In this document: piece after piece, positions 7,617-60,372 of the stretch
Position numbering within the stretch: the first letter of the stretch is position 1
Layout: each line of letters begins with the position of its first letter
Assembly: GCF_004010195.1 (NCBI RefSeq)
Contig: NC_057716.1
Location: forward strand, 6,344,899-6,408,898
Direction of reading: 5' to 3'
DNA: 64,000 nucleotides
Origin: Chiloscyllium plagiosum
Lineage: Eukaryota
The notes under the pieces: model-generated
Told to the model about the DNA's origin: nothing
The model's input: only the letters and a program-made list of their open reading frames with translations
Databases searched by the model: none
Made by a program: the position numbers and the translations under genes

Positions 7617-7921
7617 ACATGGTAGAGCTTTGGCAAATAGGGTTAAGGAGAGTCCAAAGGGTTTTTTACAAATACATTAAGGACAAAAGAATAACTAGGG
7701 AGAGAATAGGGCCCCTTAAAGATCAGAAAGGCTGCCCATGTGTGGAACTGCAAGAGATGGGGGAGATACACATGAGATAGCTTTGGCATATCGGGTTAAG
7801 GAGAGTCCAAAGGGATTTTACAAATACATTAAGGACAAAAGAATAACTAGGGAGAGAATAGGGCCCCTTATAGATCAGAAAGGCTGCCCATGTGTGGAAC
7901 TGCAAGAGATGGGGGAGATAC
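7617..7921 (+). repeat. Tandem duplication of about 152 bp inside the CR1 ORF2
   Basis: 7617-7769 and 7770-7921 are near-identical (agctttggca...aggagagtccaaaggg...gagatgggggagatac). Confidence 0.9.
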
Positions 7922-8137
7922 TAAATGAGTATTTTGCATCAGTGTTTATTAAGGATAATGATATGGAAGATAGAGAATGTGAGCAAATAAATAGCAACAG
8001 CTTGGAAAATGTCCATATTACAGAGGAGGAGGTGCTGGATGTCTCAAAACGCATAAATTAGATAAATCTCCAGGACCTGATCAGGTGTACCCCAGAAGCT
8101 AGGGAAGTGATTGCTGGACCCCTTGCTGGGGTATTTA

Positions 8138-8441: not shown

Positions 8442-10114
8442 TATTTGTATTTGTATCATCAATAGCCATAAATGAGCTGCCAGAAGACTGGAGGTTCACT
8501 AATGTAGTGCCACTATTTAAGAAAGGTGGTAAGGAAAAGCCAGAGAACTATAGACCAGTGAGCCAGACATCAATGGGAGGCAAGTTGTTTGAGGGAATCC
8601 TGAGGGACAGGATGTACATGTATTTGGAAAGGCAAGGACTGATTAGGGATAGTCAACATGGCTTTGTGTGTGGGAAATCATGTCTCACAAACTTGAGTTT
8701 TTGTAGAAGTAACAAAGAGGATTGATGAGGGTAGAGCAGAGTACGTGATCTATATGGATTTCAGTAAGATGTTAGACAAAGTTCCTCATGGTTGACTGGT
8801 TAGCAAGGTTAGATTACCTGGAATACAAGGAGAACTAGCCATTTGGATACAGAACTGGCTCGAAGGTAAAAGACAGAGGATGGGTGGTGCCGGGCTGCTT
8901 TTCAGGCCAGAGGCCAGTAACCAGCTGTGTGCCACAAGGGTCAGTGCTGGGTCCACTGCTTCTTGTCATTTATATAAATGATTTGGACGTGAACATAGGA
9001 GATATGGTTAATAAGATTGCAGATTACACCAAAATTGGAGGTGTAGTGGATATTGAAGAAGGTTACCTCAGAGTACAATGGGATCTTGATCAGTTGGGCC
9101 AATGGGCTGAAGAATGGCAGATGGAGTTTAATTTAGATAGGTCTGAGGTGCTGCATTTTGGAAAGGCAAATATTGTGGGACTTACACACTTTATGGTATG
9201 ATCCTCGGGTGTGTTGCAGAACCAAGAGACCTTGGAGTGCAGTCACAGGGAGAAGGATAGTGATCGCAGAAGATCACAGGATAGTGAAGAAGGTGTTTGG
9301 TATACATTGAGTATAGGAGTTGGGAGGTCATATTGCGGCTGTACAGGACATTGGTTAGGCAACTTTTGGAAGACTGTGTTCAATTCTGGTCTCCCTCCTA
9401 TCAGAAGGATGTTATGAAACTTGAAACAGTTCAGAAAAGATTTACAAGGATATTGCCAGGTTTGGAGGGTTTGAGCTGTGGGGAGAGACTGATAGGGCTA
9501 TTTTCCCTGCAGCATTGGAGGCTGAGGATGACCTTATAGAAGTTTATAAAATCATGAGGGGCATGGATAAGGTAAATAGATAAAGTTTTTTCCCCAGGGT
9601 GGGGGAGTCCACAACTAGAGGGCAGAGGTTTAAGGTGAGGGGGGAAAGATTTAAAAGAAACCTATGGGCAACTTTTCCACACAGAGGGTTGTAGGTGTGT
9701 GATATAAGCTACCAGAGGAAGTGGTGGAGGCTGGTACAATTTAAAAGTCATCAAGATGGGTATATGAATAGGAAGGGTTTAGAGCAATATGGGCCAAATG
9801 CTGGCAAATGGGACTAGATTTATTTAGGATGGTATGGATGAGTTGGACTGAGGTGTTTCCATCTCTATGACTATATGACTCTGTGTAAAGCTGGAATGCT
9901 TTTCTTGAAAGGATGATGGAAGCTGGTTCAATAACAATTTTCAAAAGAAATATAAGTATTTGAAAGTCCATGGGGAAAGAACAAGGAAATAGAGCTAATT
10001 GCATAGAAGGATCATTGCTCCAAAAATTAGGGAATAGAATCATTGTGGATAGAGCTTGGGAACATCAAGGGCCAGAAAATATTCATGGGAATAGGTAACA
10101 GGCCCCCTACTATT

Positions 10115-10305
10115 CGAAAAGTGTGGCGCTGGACAAGCACAGCAGGTCAGGCAGCATCCGAGGAACAGGAGAGTCTACGTTTTGGGCATAAGCCCGAAAC
10201 ATCCACTCTCCTGCTCCTTGGATGCTGCTTGACCTGCTGTGCTTTTCCAGGGCTATACTTTTCAACTCTGATCTCCAGCATCTGCAGTCCTCCCTTTCTC
10301 CCTAG
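10115..10305. mobile_element. Fold-back (inverted-repeat) Penelope-derived element
   Basis: Arms 10115-10187 and 10192-10265 are reverse complements centred on GGGC-ATAA-GCCC. A tactatt direct repeat lies at 10108-10114 and 10306-10312. Confidence 0.8.
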
Positions 10306-10919
10306 TACTATTTACCATTTGACAGAGCATTAAACAATAAATTATTGTAGTTTGATGTAATAGTTATAGGGAACTTTAATCTTCAGTTAGTCGAGACAAA
10401 TCAAATTTCAAAGGAGGTCTGGAAGATGAGGTTTTAGAATATTTTTGTGAAGGTTTCCCAGAACAATATATCATGGATCCAACTAAGGGTAAGGTTATTT
10501 TAGAGCTGGTATTGTTTAATGAGGCAGAGTTAATTATTAATGTCATAGTAAGAGGTCCACTTGGAAGGAGTGATCATAATACAACTGAGTTCCACATTAA
10601 GTTTGAAAATTGTGTACTCTAATCATTGTAATAATCTTAAATTTAGACAAATCCAATTTAGGGATATGAGGAGAGAAAGCTGGCTCTAGTTAATTAGGTA
10701 AATAGACTAAAAGGTATGGCTATAAATAAACAGTGGGAAACCATTAAAGAAACATTTAAAATGCTCAACGAAAGATATTCCACTGACAAACTTGTGGGAA
10801 AGATCCATTTATGCTTTACTAAGGAATTTAAAGATTTTAGATTAAATTAACAGTTAAATGATATTGCAATGAATAATATTAATTTGAGAGACTCTGGATT
10901 ATTTTAGAAATTAAAAAAA

Positions 10920-14618: not shown

Positions 14619-15554
14619 TTCTGGATTAGTGGTGGTGGAAGAGCACAGCAGTTCAGGCAGCATCCGAGGAGCAGTAAAATCGATGTTTCGGGCAAAAGCC
14701 CTTCATCAGGAATAAAGGCAGAGAGCCTGAAGCGTGGAAAGATAAGCTAGAGGAGGATGGGGGTGGGGAGAAAGTAGCATAGAGTACAATAGGTGAGTGN
14801 NNNNNNNNNNNNNNNNNNNNNNNNNNNNNNNNNNNNNNNNNNNNNNNNNNNNNNNNNNNNNNNNNNNNNNNNNNNNNNNNNNNNNNNNNNNNNNNNNNNN
14901 NNNNNNNNNNNNNNNNNNNNNNNNNNNNNNNNNNNNNNNNNNNNNNNNNNNNNNNNNNNNNNNNNNNNNNNNNNNNNNNNNNNNNNNNNNNNNNNNNNNN
15001 NNNNNNNNNNNNNNNNNNNNNNNNNNNNNNNNNNNNNNNNNNNNNNNNNNNNNNNNNNNNNNNNNNNNNNNNNNNNNNNNNNNNNNNNNNNNNNNNNNNN
15101 NNNNNNNNNNNNNNNNNNNNNNNNNNNNNNNNNNNNNNNNNNNNNNNNNNNNNNNNNNNNNNNNNNNNNNNNNNNNNNNNNNNNNNNNNNNNNNNNNNNN
15201 NNNNNNNNNNNNNNNNNNNNNNNNNNNNNNNNNNNNNNNNNNNNNNNNNNNNNNNNNNNNNNNNNNNNNNNNNNNNNNNNNNNNNNNNNNNNNNNNNNNN
15301 NNNNNNNNNNNNNNNNNNNNNNNNNNNNNNNNNNNNNNNNNNNNNNNNNNNNNNNNGGGCATCTTTAACCATGTGGGAAGGGAAATTGCGGTCTCTAAAG
15401 AAGGAGGCCATCTGGTGTGTTCTGTGGTGGAACTGGTCCTCCTGGGAGCAGATACGGCGGAGGTGGAGGAATTGGGAATACGGGATGGCATTTTTGCAAG
15501 AGGTAGGGTGGGAAGAGGTGTAATCCAGGTAGCTGTGGGAGTTGTTGGGTTTGT
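14619..15554 (-). mobile_element. Penelope-like retroelement nested in Rex1 (partly hidden by the gap)
   Basis: The minus frame near 15530-15357 encodes SYLDYTSSHPTSCKNAIPYSQFLHLRRICSQEDQFHHRTHQMASFFRDRNFP (PLE RT C-terminal region). A hammerhead core lies at 14682-14709, with an 11-bp TSD AATAACTGACA at 14608-14618 and 15555-15565. Confidence 0.88.
14800..15356. other. Assembly gap (557 N)
   Basis: Run of N. Confidence 1.
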
Positions 15555-16669
15555 AATAACTGACAACCTATCCTAGACTTCCCATGTAGATGCAACGGTC
15601 AAGAAGGCGCAACAACACCGCTACTTCCTCAGGCTGCTCAGGAAATTTGGCATGTCTATATGGACTCTCACCAACCTTTACAGATGATCCATTGAAAGTA
15701 TACTATCCGGGTGTATATGATCTGGTATGGCAATTACTCTGCCCAGGACTGTAAGGTTATATGCACAGCCCAGATCATCACGGAAGTCAACCTTCCATCT
15801 ACGGACTCCATTTACACAGCTGCCACCATCATCAAAGTCCCATTGCACCTCAGTAATGCTCTCCTCCAACCTCTTCCGTCAGACAGAAGATACAGAAGCT
15901 TGAACACATGCACCAGCAGGTTCAGGAACCGCTTTTTCCTGGCCATTCTTTGACTGATGAATGGACTTTCTAACTTCAAATGATGTTGATTTTTCTAAGG
16001 TCGATCTTGCCTAGTGCATGCCCTGTGCGATGTAACCTTTATGTCTTACTCTGTCCAAGTTTTCTTTCATCCTCTGATCTGTATGCTCTTGCTTACTATG
16101 ATCTGCCTGTACTGCTTGTAAACAGAACTTTTCACTATACTTAGGTACACGACAATAAATAAATCAAATCAAATTGTGAGTAATCTAAAGCAGTTCACTG
16201 TTTTGTACCATTGATGTACATCATGGACGCCTGTAAATTGGACTCCTTGAGTCTAACTACATTCCCAATTTATACTTGGACTCCTCTTGGATAGAATTGC
16301 TTAGAGAATCGTTTATTTGGGTTACATGCAACATCGCACCCTCTTGAACAACTGAATAGTCAAGAAAATAAAATACATTTCCAAAAGCACGGCACGCTTG
16401 TTTCCACAACTTGCTACTTTCGCCATGTTTGTTTATTTCGACAAGAATTCGACCTCTCACACGTTGAATCCGATTGTTAAATAAATTTGAAAAAAAAAAC
16501 TGTTTATTTCCCCCTCAGGGAATAGGCAAAGAATAATTGTTTGTACGGCAAATTCTATCTGATGTGTAATGGGGCAATAGTTTAATTCTGGCTATCTGAA
16601 CATTATGTTGGTCACATTTGCAGGGTATTTTTAAAAGCAGTTACCATATATGTCTAAGACATGTTAGTC

Positions 16670-22714: not shown

Positions 22715-23908
22715 TATACCTCTTCTTGACTTTTTTTTTCTTTATTGCCTCTAACCATACTTGTTTACTTTTACACCATTTATCCTTTTAATCACTTGAT
22801 TTACTTCCTCTGTGATACGTGCCTTCCCTTTTTATTCTTCCTGCCCCATTCTATTTCTTTGTACAGTTGTCACATGATTGACCTGAATATTTCCAGCACT
22901 GTTTATAATTTCAGGCTTCCAACATTTGTTTTCTTTTGTATAATTGTTAATGTTGCTTCAGTTTGTCACTTATGGATCTGGCCTGTTGGAAATTAATATG
23001 ATCTGGTTGCAATTCTCATTTGCAGCTGTGCTTTCTTCTGATATATATTTGGGGCAAGACACTGATCTACAAATTTATAGTATCCCTTTTGAGAAATTGC
23101 TCAAAAGAAGCAATAGAGTTATGAAAGTAAACTTTTTTTTTTGTGGAGTGAGTGGTTAAAATCTGGAATGCACAGCCTGCAAAATGATGATAGGTTCCAC
23201 TGAGTTCAAGAAGGAATTCAATTACATGAAAAGGAACAATGTGCAAGGTTACAAGGAATGATACTTAAGTGGATTTCACACTTGGAGAAATGTCTCACTC
23301 ATGCTGGGACAAATGATTGTGATTCTATTTCAGAATAGGAAACAAAAGTATCACTTAATAATGTTTCATGTGCTTCATATTTTTTAATCTTTAGGATTAA
23401 TTTATCAAACCATAGGAGGATGTTTGCAGAAGAACCTGGAGTAAGGACTGGGGAGGACATTGAGTCTACAATAGGCAAAATATCCATAAACTTTGAATTA
23501 TTTTAAAGGAATAGTTGCATTTGAACATTTTCTTCAACATCCTGTACAATTAATGCTTTTAATTCAAAGGGTACTTGCATCCTATCTGAGACATTGTGAT
23601 TTGAAGAGATTTTTGCAGTGGAATCCATCAGAAGAACAAAATCCTCTTGGCAATGAATACTGTTTTAATAGATATCAATTGGGAATTGGAAAGCTGTGTT
23701 TTTGTGTTGTCTTCATTCTTTCATAACCTGAAGAATGGAGGCAAATTTTTGGCATTTAGCCAGTTGGCATCCTCCTGCAATCTTCTTCCAGCAGACTGAA
23801 GCTTGAACTTCAGGCTTCGCTGGTATTTATGGCTCAGTCCCATGTTTCACGACAATGTTTTTGCATTTTATTTTCCCCTCTGTAACATCATTACTTTTCC
23901 ATCTTATA

Positions 23909-24068
23909 GGAGAAAGTGAGGACTGCAGATGCTGGAGATCAGAGCTGAAAAATGTGTTGCTGGAAAAGCGTAGCAGGTCAGGCAGCATCCAAGGAGCATC
24001 CTTCAGGGCTTATGCCCGAAACATCGATTCTCCTGCACCTTGGATGCTGCCTGACCTGCTGCGCTTTC
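23909..24068. mobile_element. Inverted-repeat Penelope-derived element in COQ10B intron 1
   Basis: TSD CCATCTTATA at 23899-23908 and 24069-24078; agcaggtcaggcagcatccaag is present in both orientations. Confidence 0.85.
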
Positions 24069-24517
24069 CCATCTTATACAAAATCAGCTGAATGTTGATC
24101 CAGTCAGAAAAAAAGATCCAATTTTAGCTGGCTTGATGAGCAGTTGAGTTTGGCAGACAACTGGTACTCTATTCATGTCTCAGTACTTTCAGCATACCAC
24201 TGTCAGCTGAATCATGTCAGATGCATTGGCTTTGGAACGGAGTTAAAGTCCACGATTTACCCACCAAAGAAACCAATTTGTGAAATAATTTTCTGTCTAT
24301 TGGAGGCAGTGGTAAAGATTTGAATTTATTTTTGTTCAATTTCAAATCACTTTGAATCTAGATGGATCTAGAATGAAATAGGTAAAATGGTTAAATGTGG
24401 AGGAAGGAAATTAAGAGTTGTCACTGTTATAATGAACAAACTACTAAATGCAAATGATTTATGTACAACAGAATACAGCTTTAATGTCATTTTAATAACT
24501 AATATTTCCAATAACAG

Positions 24518-24664
24518 GTATCTGTCATCTTGTGGCATTCTAATGAACAGAACTCCATTACTCAAGACACCAAGACATTGCCTGATTCAACAAACAAATT
24601 TTTTCAATCTTGCTGGGCCACTAATAAACAAGAAGAAAGAGTATTCTGAGAGAAGAGTAATGGG
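24518..24664 (+). CDS. COQ10B: COQ10B exon 2 (R/YLSSCGILMNRT...LINKKKEYSERRVMG)
   Basis: cag|G acceptor, GG|gttcgt donor, 147 nt; the KxKEYSERR motif is typical of COQ10. Confidence 0.92.
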
Positions 24665-24747
24665 GTTCGTGGTTTTTGTTATCTAAGATTTATTTTGTCT
24701 CTTGTATGTCAGTTTTGATAGTAAATTTGAATCTTAATTTGTTTTAG

Positions 24748-24940
24748 GTTTTCAATGCTGGAAATGTACAATGTAGTGTCTGGTGTAGCTGACTACAAAC
24801 ATTTTGTACCATGGTGCAAGAAATCGGACATCATATCTAAACGCTCAGGGTATGCTAAAGCTCAGCTAGAAATAGGATTTCCACCGATAGTTGAACGGTA
24901 CACTTCAGTTGTGACTTTGGTGCGACCACATTTAGTTAAG
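24748..24940 (+). CDS. COQ10B: COQ10B exon 3 ([53 protein letters not shown])
   Basis: START/polyketide-cyclase-fold signature; tag|G and AAG|gtaatg; 193 nt, restoring phase 0. Confidence 0.96.
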
Positions 24941-26887
24941 GTAATGTTTCAATATTAAGAATTCTCTTGTGTATTTAAAAGTTGAGTTGTGTATTTGTAT
25001 ACAGTTTGGATATCTTGATTTTAATGGCTCTTCCTTTCCGAACTTTCTCCTTGCCCTTTCGGTCTCTAAGATGTTAATTCCTCACTTGTGACAGGCTGCC
25101 TTGGGCATGCTGGACTGAATGGCCGGTTGCAGTGCTGTAACCATTGTAATTCTATATACTGGTCAATGTCCTGCACGTGGTCCAAATCAACCCTATTCAC
25201 AGTCCTTGACAGTACAGAAACTCCCAGCAACTCTTTCTTTCCAACTGTCTGCTTTATCAAATGGCTGCAAATAGAACAGGGAGCTAGGATAAAGCACAAC
25301 ACCATGATGCCCCTTGCTGATGCAGGAAAATAGAGACCTGTTGTTTATCCTTTTACTTTTATCACTTCCCAATTGTATCAGCATAGGTCAATTCCAGAAC
25401 ATCTCCAATGTGCATAATTCAGCTCCCCACTGAACCATCTCCGGAGCTTATAATTTTAGATGCATTTAAAAGAAATTCAATCAAAAAAATCTTAATTTTA
25501 ACAATGATCTGGTGTTCATTTGTATGTCAGAAATTACTTCACCCCATTTCTTTCTAAAATGGGTGATCTTCAGTAAGTTGAAGTGTGCAAATGTATAGTT
25601 AATTGAGTTTAAGCTATTACAATGATTAGAAATCAAAGTGTGGGTTGCAGGTTGGGTGCTGCAGTCCTCCTTTTGGTTGATTTCTATTCCCTTTTTTTCC
25701 TAGCTGTCATTCCTGTGTTCTTTCTGCTGAGTTCCAGACACATTTTGACAAGTTCCCATTATATGTTTGACAGTATGTGCAGGTTATTACAACTAAACTT
25801 GATGTTATTTACACTCAACTCTCAGGATTCATTTCATAAAAGTCATTGGATTATCATCAGAAATAGAAACCTAGACAGTTCTTCCCTCTTCAACCCAAGA
25901 ATGGTACAAGCAGTTGTGTTAATGCTGTGCTATGATAAAATCAGCTAAACCAGAAATGCAACTTGAAACCAGCTTGTCTATATGGCTTAGTATCTCCTCT
26001 TTACCATTTGATTTTACTTTTCTCCTGTCTCCTTTCAAATTTCTAGCTCACTTGCACTTTGACATGTACCAGAAAGAAGAAATTAAATTTTAACCCTAAT
26101 TTATTTCATTTCCCTTCCTCCTTTTGTAGCACTGACAGCAGTAATGGGTTGGGATCATCTCCAAGGTTTCTGTCATTCACAGAAGCAACAAAATAAATGT
26201 GCAGGGTGTCTTGTTTGCTGTTAATTTTCTTCTTGCCTGCTTGTGAGGAAAACTGTGGTCAAATCTGTTCCATCTTGGTGACCGTTCCATTATGAGAAAG
26301 CATAACTGTAAACTATCCAACCATGATGCAGTATGTGTTCCTATGCAGTAAGGCTTGGACAATGACAAGGCCTGGACTAATCAGTGGCAAGTAACATTGT
26401 CTGTCATGAATAGTAGAAATTCCCAATTCCAACAAGTGAGATTTAATCATCATCCCTTAACTTTCAATGACATTAGCATTACTGAAACCCCTCATTACTA
26501 ATATTCTGGGGACATTGACCAGAAACTGAACTTGTCCAGTCAAATAAATTCTGTGGTTACAAGAAAAGTTAGAAACTAGGAATTCTGCAGTAAGTAACTG
26601 TCCTTCTGTCTTCTCCAAACCAGTTGAGTGTGATGGGATACTTTACACTGGCCTGGATGCCTGCTCATTCCAATAATACTGTGAAGAAGCTTGATACCAT
26701 TCAAAATAAAGCTGGAATCATGATTGGCACCCTGTCTAAGACCTTTATTTCCCTTCACCATTGATGCACAGTGGCAGAAGTGTATGCCATCTATAAACTG
26801 CATTGCATTTTCTCACCCAAGTTCCTTGGGCATGTTGGGCTGAATGGCCTGTTGCAGTGCTGTAACCATTCTGACATTCTCTATTGG

Positions 26888-27239
26888 GAAGAAAGTGAGG
26901 ACTGCAGATGCTGGAGATCAGAGCTGAAAATGTGTTGCTGGAAAAGCGCAGCAGGTCAGGCAGCATCCAAGGAGCAGGAGAATCGATGTTTCGGGCACGA
27001 GCCCTTCTTCAGGAATCAGGAATTTCTACTATTCATGACAGACAATGTTACTTGCCACTGATTAGTCCAGGCCTTGTCATTGTCCAAGCCTTACTGCATA
27101 GGAACACATATTGCATCATGGTTGGATAGTTTATAGTTATGCTTTCTCATTCCTGAAAAAGGGCTCATGCCCGAAACGTCAATTCTCCTGCTCCTTGGAT
27201 GCTGCCTGACCTGCTCTTTTCCAGCAACACATTTTCAGC
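26888..27239. mobile_element. Composite Penelope-derived insertion: two inverted ribozyme-bearing ends around a captured 132-bp local segment
   Basis: A 15-bp TSD GACATTCTCTATTGG lies at 26873-26887 and 27240-27254. Segment 27019-27150 is the reverse complement of 26292-26423. Confidence 0.88.
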
Positions 27240-28423
27240 GACATTCTCTATTGGTCAACATCTGGCACCTGGCCCAAATCAACCCTTTTCACAATCTTTG
27301 ATAGTGCACTAACTCCATAATCACCAGCAACTCTTCCTTTTTCAACTGCCTACTCTGTGGAATACTGCATGAGGAATAGCACTATCCAAAACTGTCACCT
27401 AGAATGACCAGGGTAGCAGAAAGATGGAATACCATCACCTGCCTTAGAACTATATTGCCATCCCTTTTACTGTCTTCTGATTAAAATTGTGGAGCTCCAT
27501 TTTTAGCAGAACTGTAACTACCAATACTTAAGGGTAGCAGCAGTTTAACAAGGCTGCTCACTAGCAATTTCTTCAAGACAATTGACCATTAATCGTGGCT
27601 GAGCCAGTGATATCCATATCCTATGATCGACTTAAAAAATAAAGTTGTGTACAGTGAAACTTACTGGCCGATTACTCTTCTGCCTCCTACCAAACTGCGT
27701 CCCACCTATCTTCTATTGATGCAGTTTAATTAGTGGACAGGAATAGGTGAAATATTTTAGGGTATTCTGTATCCCACAAATATTTTCAAAAGTAACTGGC
27801 AGAGAAAAAAAAAACAAATGGATTGATGGCCTGTTGATCTGATTAGTACAGTCACTTGTTTCATAGAAACATGGAAAAGAGGAGCAGGAGCGTGCTCTGC
27901 AGACCATCAAGCCTACCCTGCCATTCAACATGATCATCGATAATCCTCTATCTCAATGCTGTACTCCTAAGCTCTTTCTACAACACTTAATACCTTTAGT
28001 CTCTAGAGATCTATCCATTTTTTAAAAAGCATATTCAGTTTCATCTGCAAATGTAACCTGAATGAGTGAGTAAGTTGTTTTCATTTTCTTAAAGCAGGTT
28101 TCAGTCGTGTAGTGATTGTAATACTGGACTGACCACCAAAAAACCTCTTGTAAAATTAAATTCTGAAATTTTGTAACCTGGCATGTTTACTTGGATAACA
28201 TGACTACAATCTGTTGTTTGATGTATTCCCCTTCTTAACTAATACCATGTAGTGAACTCGTTATGTATGCTTAAGTTTCTCATGGCAACAAAGGAAAGCT
28301 AAAAAGTGTATAGAGCCATACCAGCATTGTCTACATCTTGAGAAAAAAAAATTGTGTGCAACCTTTTTCTAAATGGAATGTTTCATTTAAAGTCTTAGTT
28401 TTATTAATAATATATAATTTCAG

Positions 28424-28525
28424 GCTTCCTGTACTGATGGTAGACTATTTAATCATTTGGAGACAAATTGGCGATTCAGTCCTGGAGTTCCTGGATATCC
28501 AAGGACCTGCACTGTTGACTTTTCG
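28424..28525 (+). CDS. COQ10B: COQ10B exon 4 ([34 protein letters not shown])
   Basis: cag|GCT and TCG|gtaggt, 102 nt, conserved COQ10 sequence. Confidence 0.96.
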
Positions 28526-30434
28526 GTAGGTTATATGAAACGTGCCTCAGACTTCTTGTATTTTAGATCGACTGTAACTTGGAAAGACTTGTAAGACTGG
28601 AAAAAAAAATCTGTTCATTCCTGAAGACTGAATAGAGCAGCTAATTTAACACCGCTTGTGTTTAATACTTTCTAACCTGTGGTACTAGCCACATTTATTA
28701 AGGATATTTTCATTTTCTTATTAATCTTGTTTGTACAAATCAAAAATTGACTGAATGCATTAATTTGAGAAGAGCAAGAAAAGGCCATCAAATTTATCAA
28801 GCCAATTTATCAATGCAATTTACATTCAATTCACCCATGTTCTGAGCACATGATTTTTGGACAGAGCATCCAGAGGAAAAAAGCATTGCAAACTTCTGAT
28901 GGTTAATCAAGTAGCAGGACCTTGGCACACTTCAGAAGTCACATTTAAAAGTGATCATGTGGGGCCCACATGCTCCTCTAACCGTTGTGCAAGTGACTCT
29001 CCTCACAATTTATGTTGCATTTCTTTTGGAGTTTAATGCCATATTCTGTTGCATTTATAGTAGATCATCCCTAGTTGGGACGTTAATGTAAATTTTAGAA
29101 ATGCTTATGGATAGTTGAAAATCTCTTGCATAAGGAGCTCAGAAGCTGCTGAGTTCTCATTTTGGCAAACAGCAAATCATTTGCAGCTGTTGCTTATTCA
29201 TCATGAATAGTTCTTTTATAACATGCAACTCCATTGCCATTTACTAGTTAACTTTTTTTGCAAGATTGTAGTGCTGAAGTTTTGTTTTTGCTGTTTCTCC
29301 ACCCCTGAAGTTTAACAGTGGATATCTTTTTAACATTATTTACAGATATTTTATAGTATAATACAGTACAAACGAGGCCTTTTAGATGTGTACTTATAAA
29401 AACTACTCTAAATCTATACTAGTTCCACTTCCCAACAATTGGCCTGTAGCTTTGAAAGCGATGACCTTTTCAGTTGCTCATCCAAGTACTTTTTTTAAAA
29501 AGTAGAGGTTTCCTGCCTCAACTGCCTTCCCAGGCTGTGCATTCCAAGTTTTCATCACTCTCTGGCTGGGGAGAATAAAAACTTTCTCAAATCCTCTCTA
29601 CCTCCAGCCTTAACATTACTCCCCCTTGTTAGTGACCCTTCAACTAAGGGGAATGGCTGCTTTGTTTTCACCCTGTCCATGCTTTTACCCAGCATCTCTT
29701 CACTGTAAGCTGCTTCATTCCAGGCAATATCTTAACAAATCTCCTCTGCACTCCTTCCAGCGTAATGACCAGAGCTTTGGGCATACTTCTTCAGCTGTGG
29801 CCTAATTAAAATTTTCTACAGCTCCAACGTGACCTCCCTACTGAAAGGCAATTGTCCCATATGCAGCCTTAACTCCCCTATTAACCTGTCCTGCCACCTT
29901 CAGGAATCTATGGACAAGTATCCCAAGATCTCTCTGCTCCTATGAATCCTATAATGTTCTGTCACTGGTTGAGTATTCATGTAATAGTATTATATAGATT
30001 TGTAACTGTATTCTCTCAATTTTGAAATAGGTGGTAACAAGTTTATCTTTGTTATGAAAGCTTCTTAAACTTGCATAGGTGTCTTTTTATTACTGGAAAA
30101 GATGAAGAATCCTTATCCACAGGAGAAGGAACACCTGATACAAGAATCAGCTGTGGCTCAGTGGTCATTTTCTTCTGAAGCAGAAGGCTGTGGATTCATG
30201 TTTCAGTGTAGAAATCTGAGCACCAAGTTGAGGCCAACTACAGCAGTAATGAGGAAGTGCTATGCTCTCGGCGAAGTGCTGTCTTTAGGCTCCAAAATGT
30301 AACAAGTGAACACTGAATATAAACAAAAAACCTATTGTGCTCTTCAAACTACCTTGACAATATTTTCTGATGCCCCCGTCAATGTTACTTGAAATAGATT
30401 TGCCTTTTATGGAACAATGAATTGCACTTATATA

Positions 30435-30950: not shown

Positions 30951-31029
30951 GTGCATTGAAGTAGTGCTTTTAGGCTTTGTGAAATATCGACTTTCTTCAT
31001 CGATGCTGTCTGTAAAACCTGCCAGCACA

Positions 31030-31612
31030 CCACCCCCCATCACCTCCATCCAGGGCCCCAAACAGTCCTTCTAGGTGAGTCAGAGGTTCATCTGCCTCTC
31101 TTCCAGCCTAGCTTATTGTAATAGGTGCTCCTGATGTGGTTTTCACAACATCGGAAATGAACAGTTTGCCGAGCATTGCAGCTGGGCCTGCAGAGGCCAA
31201 CCTGACCTCCCAGAGACCGCCCACTTCAATCCCCTTCCCACTCCCGTTCCAACATGACCATCCTTGGCCCCTCCACTGCCACAACAAACCGTACTGCAAA
31301 TTGGAGGAACAATAACTCATCTTCTGCCTAGGCAGCCAACAGCCCGGAGGACTCAACATTGAGTTCTCCAATTACAAATAACCTCCTTTCCGAGCCCTTC
31401 CCCCTCTCTGCCACCGACCAGTTTGTACCCTGTACCTATCTTCATCTATCCCCTTTTTATGATCCTGTCCCCCACCACCCTTTATCTGACATCCACCTCC
31501 AATCCTGAAGAAGGATTACACCTGAAATGTCAACTTCTCCAACTCCTGATGCTCTCTGGCTTGCTGTGTTCTTCCAGTCTCCTGCCTGTCTACTTCTGAT
31601 TCTGATTTCTAG
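31030..31612 (+). mobile_element. Penelope-like element 3' part: decayed GIY-YIG endonuclease, 3' UTR and hammerhead core
   Basis: It translates, with lesions, to IQGPKQSF.V.QRFICLSSSLAYC.RCS.CG...IG and KLEEQ.LIFCLGSQQPGGLNIEFSNYK*. CTGAAGA-AGG-ATTACA-CCT-GAAA-TGTC lies at 31505-31531. Confidence 0.85.
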
Positions 31613-32544
31613 CAGAGGGTTTTTTAAACAAAGTTGACAGTTTTAAAATTATTGGTGGTCTTGGAGCCATTGTAAGTCAATGAGCTGGGGGGTGGTTAAA
31701 TGGATTTAAGTGCAAATCAGAATAAAGGGAGATTTTTAGGTGGCATCCAGATTTCACGTTAAAGTGACTACTTTCAGAAGTATAGTTGAAAAGTGCATTT
31801 AAATTGTTCTAAGATTCATAAATGGTGTCATAGTATCTGCACATTGGTGTCATTTTGTGCTGATCTTCCACATTTCCTCAAGTCAGTTACATCCAGGCCG
31901 TTGTATTAGTCATTTATTTCCTAAAGTTTCCTGTTGGTTTTGGTTGATCTTTGATAATTGTTATACACTCATGTGACCAAATAGTTTAGGATCCAAGGAT
32001 AGATCAGGGTACTTTCTGGATGGTATGAAGTTGAATACAGATGTCCAAAGACATTGGGGGTTCAGCTCTGTAGATCTTTTAAAATGTCACTAACAGGTGC
32101 AGAAAATAACCAAGAAAGCTAATGAATACTTGCCTTTATACATAGAGGACTGGAGTACAAGGATGCAGAACTTATGCTGCAATTATACAAACCCAGCTTA
32201 GATCCTACTTGAAGTATTAAGATCTGTGCATCTCACCTTTTAGGAAACATATAGACATAGATGTACAGCATAGAAACAGACCCTTGTGTCCAACTCGTCT
32301 AAGGCAACTGGATATCTAAAATTAATTCCATTTGTGAATGTGGATTAAGAATGAATGGGAAAATGATCAAGATCATGGTGATAAGCAGAGACCTAACTCA
32401 AAGATAACTGATGTAAATTGACAAATCCTCAACCTGGCTAGATCACAGTGACTGTACTTTCAGAAGTATAGCAGAGAAGTCTACCATTTTGGATTTAAGT
32501 TATTAACTTAAACAAATTTAGTTTTCTGTACTGTTCAAGTGTAA

Positions 32545-32748
<204 letters not shown>

Positions 32749-60124: not shown

Positions 60125-60372
60125 CAGAAGTGGGTACTGCAGACCTGGAGAGTACAGTCAAGATTAGAGTGGTGCTTGAAATGCACAGCAGGTCTGGCAG
60201 CATCCGAGGAGCGGGAAAAATCGACGTTTCGGGCAAAAGCCCTTCATCAGGAATGAGGTGGGAGCCTCGGGGATGATGAGATAAGTGGGAGGGGCTGGGG
60301 CTGGGGAGGAGGTAGCTGAGAGTGCAAGAGATGGATGGAGGTGGGGGTGAAGGTGATAGGTCGGAGAGGAGA
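60125..60372 (-). mobile_element. Penelope-like element 3' end with an intact minimal hammerhead core
   Basis: The minus strand has a pyrimidine-rich 3' UTR, then CTGATGA-A-GGGC-TTTT-GCCC-GAAA-CGTC (60223-60250) and the family terminus. Layout is the same as 14619-14800. Confidence 0.85.
60223..60250 (-). ncRNA. Minimal (type I, Penelope-associated) hammerhead ribozyme motif
   Basis: CUGAUGA box, 4-bp helix II, GAAA box, palindromic ACGU in place of helix III, and a GUC cleavage triplet. Helix I is only weakly paired and activity is not shown. Confidence 0.7.

Follow-up and report, generated by a model that had tools for sequence, protein, structure and literature searches.

An intron of a presumed coq10b-like gene, located in the 64,000-nucleotide stretch of Chiloscyllium plagiosum contig NC_057716.1 analyzed here (hereafter, the window), carries at 26873-27254 two inverted ends of a Penelope-like element (PLE) that enclose an inverted copy of nearby intronic DNA. 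As an observation the structure is confirmed, with small corrections, and the interpretation first given to it is partly supported. We class the unit as an inverted, truncated insertion of a PLE whose bridge was templated locally. The reading that we prefer, with a probability of about 0.6, is that of a dead insertion, in which each strand of a single staggered cut would have primed one end and 132 bases of local template would have bridged the two.

From left to right, the unit consists of a 15-bp target-site duplication (TSD), a 129-bp minus-strand PLE end, a 132-bp spacer, a 91-bp plus-strand PLE end and the second TSD copy (Table 1). All five parts occupy the positions proposed for them in the initial annotation, made from the sequence alone, which missed the tail restricted to the left arm, the tandem CAGGAAT at the left joint and the decay of both hammerhead motifs. 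The two TSD copies are 100% identical, the chance of this being approximately 1.4e-9 per placement and 5.6e-7 over 400 placements. The arms are asymmetric, with a 35-nt tail (26888-26922) on the left and none on the right, and contain no open reading frame (ORF). Over 94 alignment columns, 26923-27016 (minus strand) and 27149-27239 (plus strand) differ by four substitutions and a 3-nt deletion, the outer end of the right arm corresponding to left-arm position 26923.

Table 1. Features of the insertion unit and its surroundings (pLTR, pseudo-long terminal repeat).
Feature	Position	Strand	Basis or remarks
Left TSD, 15 bp, GACATTCTCTATTGG	26873-26887	+	repeat comparison
Penelope tail, 35 nt, left arm only	26888-26922	-	alignment; outer end coincides with principal start site of the family
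Left arm, Penelope-like pLTR end with minimal hammerhead motif	26923-27016	-	core C3 27012, stem II 27004-26993
Left joint, tandem CAGGAAT-CAGGAAT	27010-27023	+	alignment
Captured spacer, 132-bp inverted copy of 26292-26423	27019-27150	-	two C>T changes
Right arm, pLTR end without tail	27149-27239	+	G8>A at 27158; 3-nt deletion near 27212
Right TSD, 15 bp, GACATTCTCTATTGG	27240-27254	+	repeat comparison
Spacer source, intronic DNA	26292-26423	+	130/132 identity to spacer
Host intron, approximate ends	24941-28422	+	between exon-like frames of coq10b-like gene

Logan contigs from four of the 22 listed sequencing runs (organisms A and B, two runs each; four studies) were compared with the window, at least 31 letters per side being required for a contig to bridge a joint. 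One of the runs, X1, is possibly the sample behind the assembly; organism B, a sister species, diverges from the window by 2.3-2.6% in the flanks. Each of the four runs has one contig (records 8, 16, 24 and 32) in which 23-24 right-arm letters are followed by the TSD and the unique flank, the arm sides falling under the 31-letter rule. The left outer junction is represented by one contig of organism B (run X6), joining the left flank to 26 left-arm letters and likewise under this rule. Record 18 of run X15 ends at 26887 at about half depth, with 14 unaligned letters, and is counted neither for nor against an empty allele. The outer ends are taken as older than the split of A and B. Moreover, X1 record 7 (27081-27175, 95 letters), which extends 25 letters into the right arm (again under the rule), begins exactly 30 bases before the copy-specific letter at 27111, and in X1 the contig of the source breaks off at 26361, which is 30 bases beyond 26331, the source letter corresponding to 27111. 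With the X1 graph breaking at the predicted bases and the right junction present in all four runs, the misassembly that had been considered at the outset is not borne out, as far as the contigs show.

The spacer is the reverse complement of its source with exactly two mismatches (130/132), at 27111 and 27134, and each is a C>T change when the copy is read on the plus strand. Both arose in the copy, since species B carries the window's letters at source positions 26308 and 26331 (no difference rows are found there, and both are covered by record 9 of run X11). The distance between copy and source, 2/132 against 3.5 expected for an age beyond the A/B split (P(<=2) = 0.33), fits a single event that would be older than this split. 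The source is situated to the left of the break, 464-595 bases away, and neither it nor the spacer has a second match with E below 0.26 in the 64-kb window. Part of the source is presumably a decayed remnant of a non-LTR reverse transcriptase, judging from its translation; a protein search intended to name this host long interspersed nuclear element (LINE) and to polarize three A/B differences within the source gave no match. The claim that the spacer comes from the local copy, as opposed to other copies of the LINE, holds for 26288-26375, where a single contig at 90% likeness or more is found in both X15 and X11 (up to 26419 in X11); the other half of the spacer (27036-27079) attracts other family contigs (depth 93-339).

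At the left joint, the CA at 27017-27018 is part of neither arm nor source, the following GGAAT (27019-27023) also matches source positions 26419-26423, and the CAGGAAT tandem is a probable 7-nt slip duplication. The microhomology at the right joint is AT (27149-27150), or CTCAT if the donor RNA had CTCATTCC, like the copy at 60254. As for the two microhomologies reported initially, AT stands, while GGAAT pairs with the second CAGGAAT unit and not with the arm end at 27016.

The Penelope-like identity of the ends is upheld by the combination of a linked frame for reverse transcriptase (RT) and GIY-YIG endonuclease, the one-sided tail, the TSD and the minimal hammerhead motif. In particular, a related end at 14629-14713 (87% identity to the left arm) lies beside a frame that shares 93% identity with P0001, the two being separated by an N gap. 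P0001 matches RVT_1 with E 0.0077, while its GIY-YIG match, with E 0.00025 and 21.7 bits, falls slightly short of the 22.6 cut-off. Its linker between RT and endonuclease contains, by eye, a CxxxxCxxC stretch, a cysteine-rich linker at this place being a trait of Neptune or Nematis elements. The sequence of this related locus indirectly supports an assignment of the arms to a Neptune-type, endonuclease-bearing PLE. The PLE protein fragment of the window is 90-93% identical to three proteins labeled as Chiloscyllium punctatum, and exact-pattern scans for the element gave no matches in viral contigs, metagenome contigs and prokaryote genomes. The locus itself (14629-15567) comprises a Penelope end and an RT-linker fragment parted by a 557-base N gap (14800-15356).

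In the window, a strict descriptor of the minimal hammerhead recognizes three cores (in the left arm, at 14.6 kb and at 60 kb), compared with a mean of 0 in 30 mononucleotide shuffles. The predicted cuts are after 26985 in the left arm and after 27180 in the right one. As in metazoan PLE hammerheads (PMC4209133), the motif has a CUGANGA core, an extra base between positions 9 and 10.1 and a G10.1-C11.1 pair, and intact family copies also share the palindromic 15.2-16.2; unlike intact metazoan PLE hammerheads, both copies in this unit are decayed. The right-arm core reads CUGAAAA, G8 being lost, and the palindromic ACGU of helix III in the left arm has become ACAU (26987). An active hammerhead pair would have an intact catalytic core and a self-complementary helix III in both arms, which these arms do not, and of the initial description of the ends as ribozyme-bearing only the presence of the family motif is retained. 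Rfam at the gathering score gave no match over the whole window, the six chance-level matches near the locus included no hammerhead, and the arms folded as RNA showed no excess stability (z from -0.45 to +0.85).

Two other classes of elements were considered and rejected. Retrozymes are defined as head-to-tail tandem units, each with a hammerhead (10.64898/2026.07.22.740005), and the non-LTR retrozyme does not apply here, the two units being inverted and parted by host DNA. A DNA transposon with terminal inverted repeats (TIRs), or a composite resembling a miniature inverted-repeat transposable element, is likewise not supported, the repeat beginning 35 nt inside the left end and no second copy being present in the window. 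The earlier term TIR-like composite element is not supported, given the asymmetric ends and the single-copy depth of the spacer in X1 (5.86, with 5.7-6.5 in the flanks); there is no sign of the composite moving as a unit.

Both arms contain the cut site, stem II and the CUGANGA box and stop 4 nt beyond the box, that is, 32 nt past the cut site. This common end point, ATTC located 5' of the box, had been recognized from the start, and it is shared by the solo tail-less end at 1627-1722 (region 1618-1733, 12-bp TSD); as both arms are complete to it, the center of the unit is not eroded. Synthesis of complementary DNA (cDNA) runs 3' to 5' along the RNA, so that the cut site is met first. Since 32 nt beyond it were copied, the arms were made from uncut RNA, and the whole motif was passed. 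A profile search of the window gave 14 hits, and exclusion of three weak ones without a core (1770, 30448 and 53004) left 11 arms at eight loci. In four of these arms the end lies no more than 8 nt upstream of the core, in three at or in stem II and in one downstream of the cut site, and three continue upstream (for the arm at 31.5 kb this follows from the adjacent endonuclease fragment), whereas none ends at the predicted cut site. The proposal that reverse transcription stalled at the ribozyme is therefore supported neither by the arms of the unit nor by the other arms in the window.

Three long copies carry upstream sequence, and each of them has at the stop position an A, set within TTATTCC, TCATTCC or CCAATCC. 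These copies (14713, 60254 and 31502) belong to different subfamilies and fit the initiator consensus YYANWYY, with the A four bases before the CTGA core; the background of this consensus is 1.3% of window positions and higher where pyrimidines abound, and the copies are homologous and pyrimidine-rich. The stop at ATTC is likely to reflect run-off at the 5' end of the RNA, and the transcription start would then be directly ahead of the hammerhead. Penelope promoters are located in the pLTR, including an initiator in Drosophila, where the start is more than 100 nt upstream of the hammerhead, the interval comprising 46 nt and a 75-bp intron that ends at helix I (PMC2377424).

Head-to-head inverted pairs are found at three of the eight PLE-end loci in the window, this unit being one of them, and such pairs, with a tail on one side only, are the usual form for elements of this kind. 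In the pair at 10116-10302 the arms meet at the palindromic stem II of the hammerhead; those of the pair at 23909-24068, which has a 10-bp TSD (23899-24078), are connected by a small number of filler bases. The former (within 10108-10312) represents an older subfamily and has a decayed target duplication of 7 bp or longer; in the latter, the left arm ends about 10 nt downstream of the cut site, and the filler resembles nearby element sequence. A further locus, 30985-31614, is a divergent Penelope-like 3' end, with an endonuclease-like fragment (30985-31351) followed at 31502 by a hammerhead-like motif that has a different stem II.

The family contigs show the same arrangement: among the joints listed, 13 of 15 link the left-arm to the right-arm orientation at other loci, and there are 892 further joints. 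Loose ends of other copies pile up at 26888-26891 (190, 986 and 249 contigs in X1), and a second pile is observed at 26922-26927, near the outer end of the right arm. The outer ends of the unit's arms thus fall on two family-wide start clusters, matching the two RT start sites described in PMC11167929. At 26890, approximately 440-1030 flanking contigs per run end with the consensus AACTAGG, which suggests a possible target preference at the tail-end nick. A separate inverted junction, from 26966 to 27146, has a small hairpin center and a depth of about 210 in three runs of both species, with the unique flanks at depth 6-13 and only 22-27 letters on the sides of the junction; some inverted units, or a repeat holding one, may have been amplified.

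According to the mechanism that we propose, the endonuclease would nick the two strands 15 nt apart, as the TSD indicates, leaving 3' overhangs, and each 3' end would prime reverse transcription, as has been shown in vitro for an anole PLE. The top strand would prime at the end of the tail and the bottom strand at the end of the pLTR, which would explain the one-sided tail; the left arm would be the top-strand cDNA primed at the right TSD edge, and the right arm the bottom-strand cDNA primed at the left edge. Both cDNAs, judging from their extent, would run through the uncut hammerhead to ATTC, likely the RNA 5' end. Having the same sequence, they cannot pair with each other, and at the sister loci they would be joined at the palindromic stem II or by short filler instead. 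In this unit, the top cDNA would slip by 7 nt, anneal by GGAAT to the plus-strand ATTCC at 26419-26423 and be extended by 132 nt, after which it would be released and pair with the bottom cDNA via AT or CTCAT, the gaps being filled.

The orientation of the spacer is that required of a top-strand cDNA folding back on the plus strand. The template may have been the resected single-stranded left flank, used in cis by fold-back, for which we have a slight preference over nascent coq10b pre-mRNA because of the analogy to templated insertions of L1 and to fold-back repair; orientation does not separate the two templates at one locus, both predicting it. Of the initially suggested scheme, with two priming reactions and a template switch onto local DNA or pre-mRNA, opposite-strand priming within one TSD and the local template are kept, and the stall as a trigger is not supported.

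Several observations weigh against the preferred reading. The contigs of the four runs show no empty orthologous site, none of them crosses the whole unit, and the inner left joint is absent among the pieces listed. The copy-specific letters are seen in one run of four, the bin 27080-27123 being empty in X15, X6 and X11; to take this bin as absence of the spacer was rejected, as the filter drops records and X1 also lacks the inner left joint among the listed pieces. Moreover, A and B differ at source positions 26342, 26352 and 26354, and the copy in the window agrees with the source in the window at all three. A capture as old as the arms requires all three to be changes of the B lineage, with odds of about 1 in 8, or about 1 in 4 if the adjacent two differences are one event. 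The lengths of the microhomologies, which depend on the subfamily sequence directly upstream of ATTC, are uncertain, and ATTCC is present seven times on the plus strand within 2 kb to the left, so that the annealing site is not special. Finally, the consensus behind the initiator interpretation of the stop is a weak one.

The alternative closest to the preferred reading retains the single event and differs in the template, the reverse transcriptase jumping from the RNA end onto nascent coq10b pre-mRNA near the break. The locus is in an intron of a plus-strand gene, transcription would reach the source before the insertion site, the copy has the antisense orientation that this route needs, and the 7-nt slip resembles what an enzyme still engaged at the template end might leave; but fold-back on resected DNA predicts the same orientation, so that the fit amounts to one bit, and we consider this route unlikely, though worth serious attention. 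Another possibility is that an ordinary inverted Penelope pair was inserted first and a break at its hairpin center was later repaired or converted with a local inverted patch. The whole unit is predicted to fold as a strong hairpin (z -16), the outer junctions are found in both species and the copy-specific letters in X1 alone, at each of the three source positions where A and B differ the copy has the letter of species A, and fold-back templated insertions, mostly of 5-34 bp, occur at plain yeast breaks (PMC11724301). However, neither arm is shortened at the center, both reaching the family stop point, the divergence of the copy is compatible with one old event, and the X6 source contig of species B breaks twice inside the copied segment (26295-26324 and 26376-26405), as a second copy would cause, while X11 has no such break, so that the two runs of species B disagree on this point. 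Two successive events are thus rather improbable.

A switch triggered by the hammerhead, with both reverse transcriptions stalled at or ended by it, agrees with the four arms ending within 8 nt upstream of the core and the three at or in stem II, as well as with ATTC being the 5' strand of helix I. It is at odds with the RNA having been uncut and the fold passed, with the absence of arms ending at the cut site, and with data on the anole element, whose hammerhead mutants leave insertion in vitro unchanged and whose RNA reads included none ending at the cut site (PMC11167929), which makes it quite improbable. The arms might also stem from self-priming on an antisense or read-through RNA that included the spacer. 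For rotifer Penelope, self-priming has been put forward to explain head-to-head pairs whose joint is a palindrome (PMC3846280), and the arms of the pair at 10116-10302 meet at such a palindrome; but a spacer carried by the RNA should derive from the donor locus and not from a site 0.5 kb beside the new target, and two-strand priming has since been shown in vitro (PMC11167929), so we give this origin very little weight. As to an assembly artifact, inverted PLE structures do trouble short-read assemblies (PMC8557442) and no read considered here spans the unit, yet two copy-specific letters, an exact TSD, the breaks of the X1 graph at the predicted bases and the right outer junction in four runs of two species leave it hardly credible.

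Inverted Penelope ends, capture between them and local templating by L1 have already been described. PMC3846280 describes pLTRs in inverted orientation, tails at one end only and solo pLTRs that, within a TSD, enclose captured sequences unrelated to them, and an inverted copy with a tail is called typical of PLEs, the mechanism being left undefined, in PMC8557442. In the insertion units presented in these two reports, the captured DNA, which is either a distant gene or has no stated origin, is read as mobilized in trans; unlike in those units, only 0.5 kb separates source and target here, and the spacer occupies the joint of inverted ends without ORFs. Opposite-strand minimal hammerheads about 100-700 bp apart are known in Schistosoma (PMC4209133), and short fold-back inversions at yeast breaks (PMC11724301). 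In the literature outside most subscription journals, we found neither a published sub-kb local capture between inverted Penelope ends nor published shark Penelope insertions of such form.

For L1, 10.1101/2024.08.27.596794 reports 22 templated insertions shorter than 250 bp, with a template typically no farther than 15 bp from the insertion site, and PMC11702581 three insertions with nearby genomic templates. As in L1 twin priming with templated insertion, both ends of a staggered cut are primed here, the TSD is discrete and the joints have microhomology, and the 132-bp local, non-element template inside the TSD is comparable to L1 templated insertions. In contrast to L1 twin priming, where the copies are adjacent and represent different parts of one RNA, both cDNAs here copy the same 91-94 nt, and the template is 464-595 bp away, the 15 bp of L1 being a typical value and not a strict rule. 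In the in vitro system of the anole PLE Poseidon, both strands are nicked and extended, two internal start sites bound the tail, unprocessed RNA is the substrate of target-primed reverse transcription, and hammerhead mutations are without effect on insertion (PMC11167929). Poseidon belongs to a clade different from Neptune, and neither end joining nor local capture was reconstituted in that system.

A broader generalization can be offered tentatively, as being somewhat doubtful: shark Neptune-type PLEs would routinely make two identical cDNAs running off an initiator-defined RNA 5' end located four bases ahead of the hammerhead core, their own RT bridging them by a jump onto DNA or nascent RNA 0.5-3 kb away. 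If true, this would be a recurrent, element-driven germline source of short inverted duplications, and the scars would form a large natural data set on the closure of Penelope insertions; both insertion closure and the formation of inverted repeats are stated to be unresolved in PMC8557442 and PMC11167929. Although one fossil proves little, the two sites of priming, the points where the cDNAs end and the template of the bridge are all preserved in it. Should spacers of this kind be frequent in the genome, a purely computational comparison of the side, strand and distance of their sources would tell DNA fold-back and pre-mRNA templating apart.

The host gene, which we take to be coq10b-like from motifs of human COQ10B, is represented by exon-like frames at 24372-24686, approximately 24750-24940, 28425-28530 and 32580-32700, found by a short-motif search. 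An hspd1 exon is located on the minus strand at 36.2-36.5 kb (Cpn60_TCP1, E 4e-8). Pfam named three of six window frames, one of them at chance level, while the PLE fragment and the one coq10b-like frame scanned received no name. The insertion is intronic, decayed and without evident function now, and is likely neutral. The segment 25099-25253 matches the sequence on either side of the insertion site in the same order but has no insert, being 94% and then 75% alike; it may be either an old local duplicate or a member of a chimeric repeat family, and could serve as a stand-in for the empty site. Compared with the window, both runs of organism B have a 13-base insertion at 26615. A tandem duplication of about 160 bp (7617-7929), its copies 94% alike, is found within another decayed repeat.

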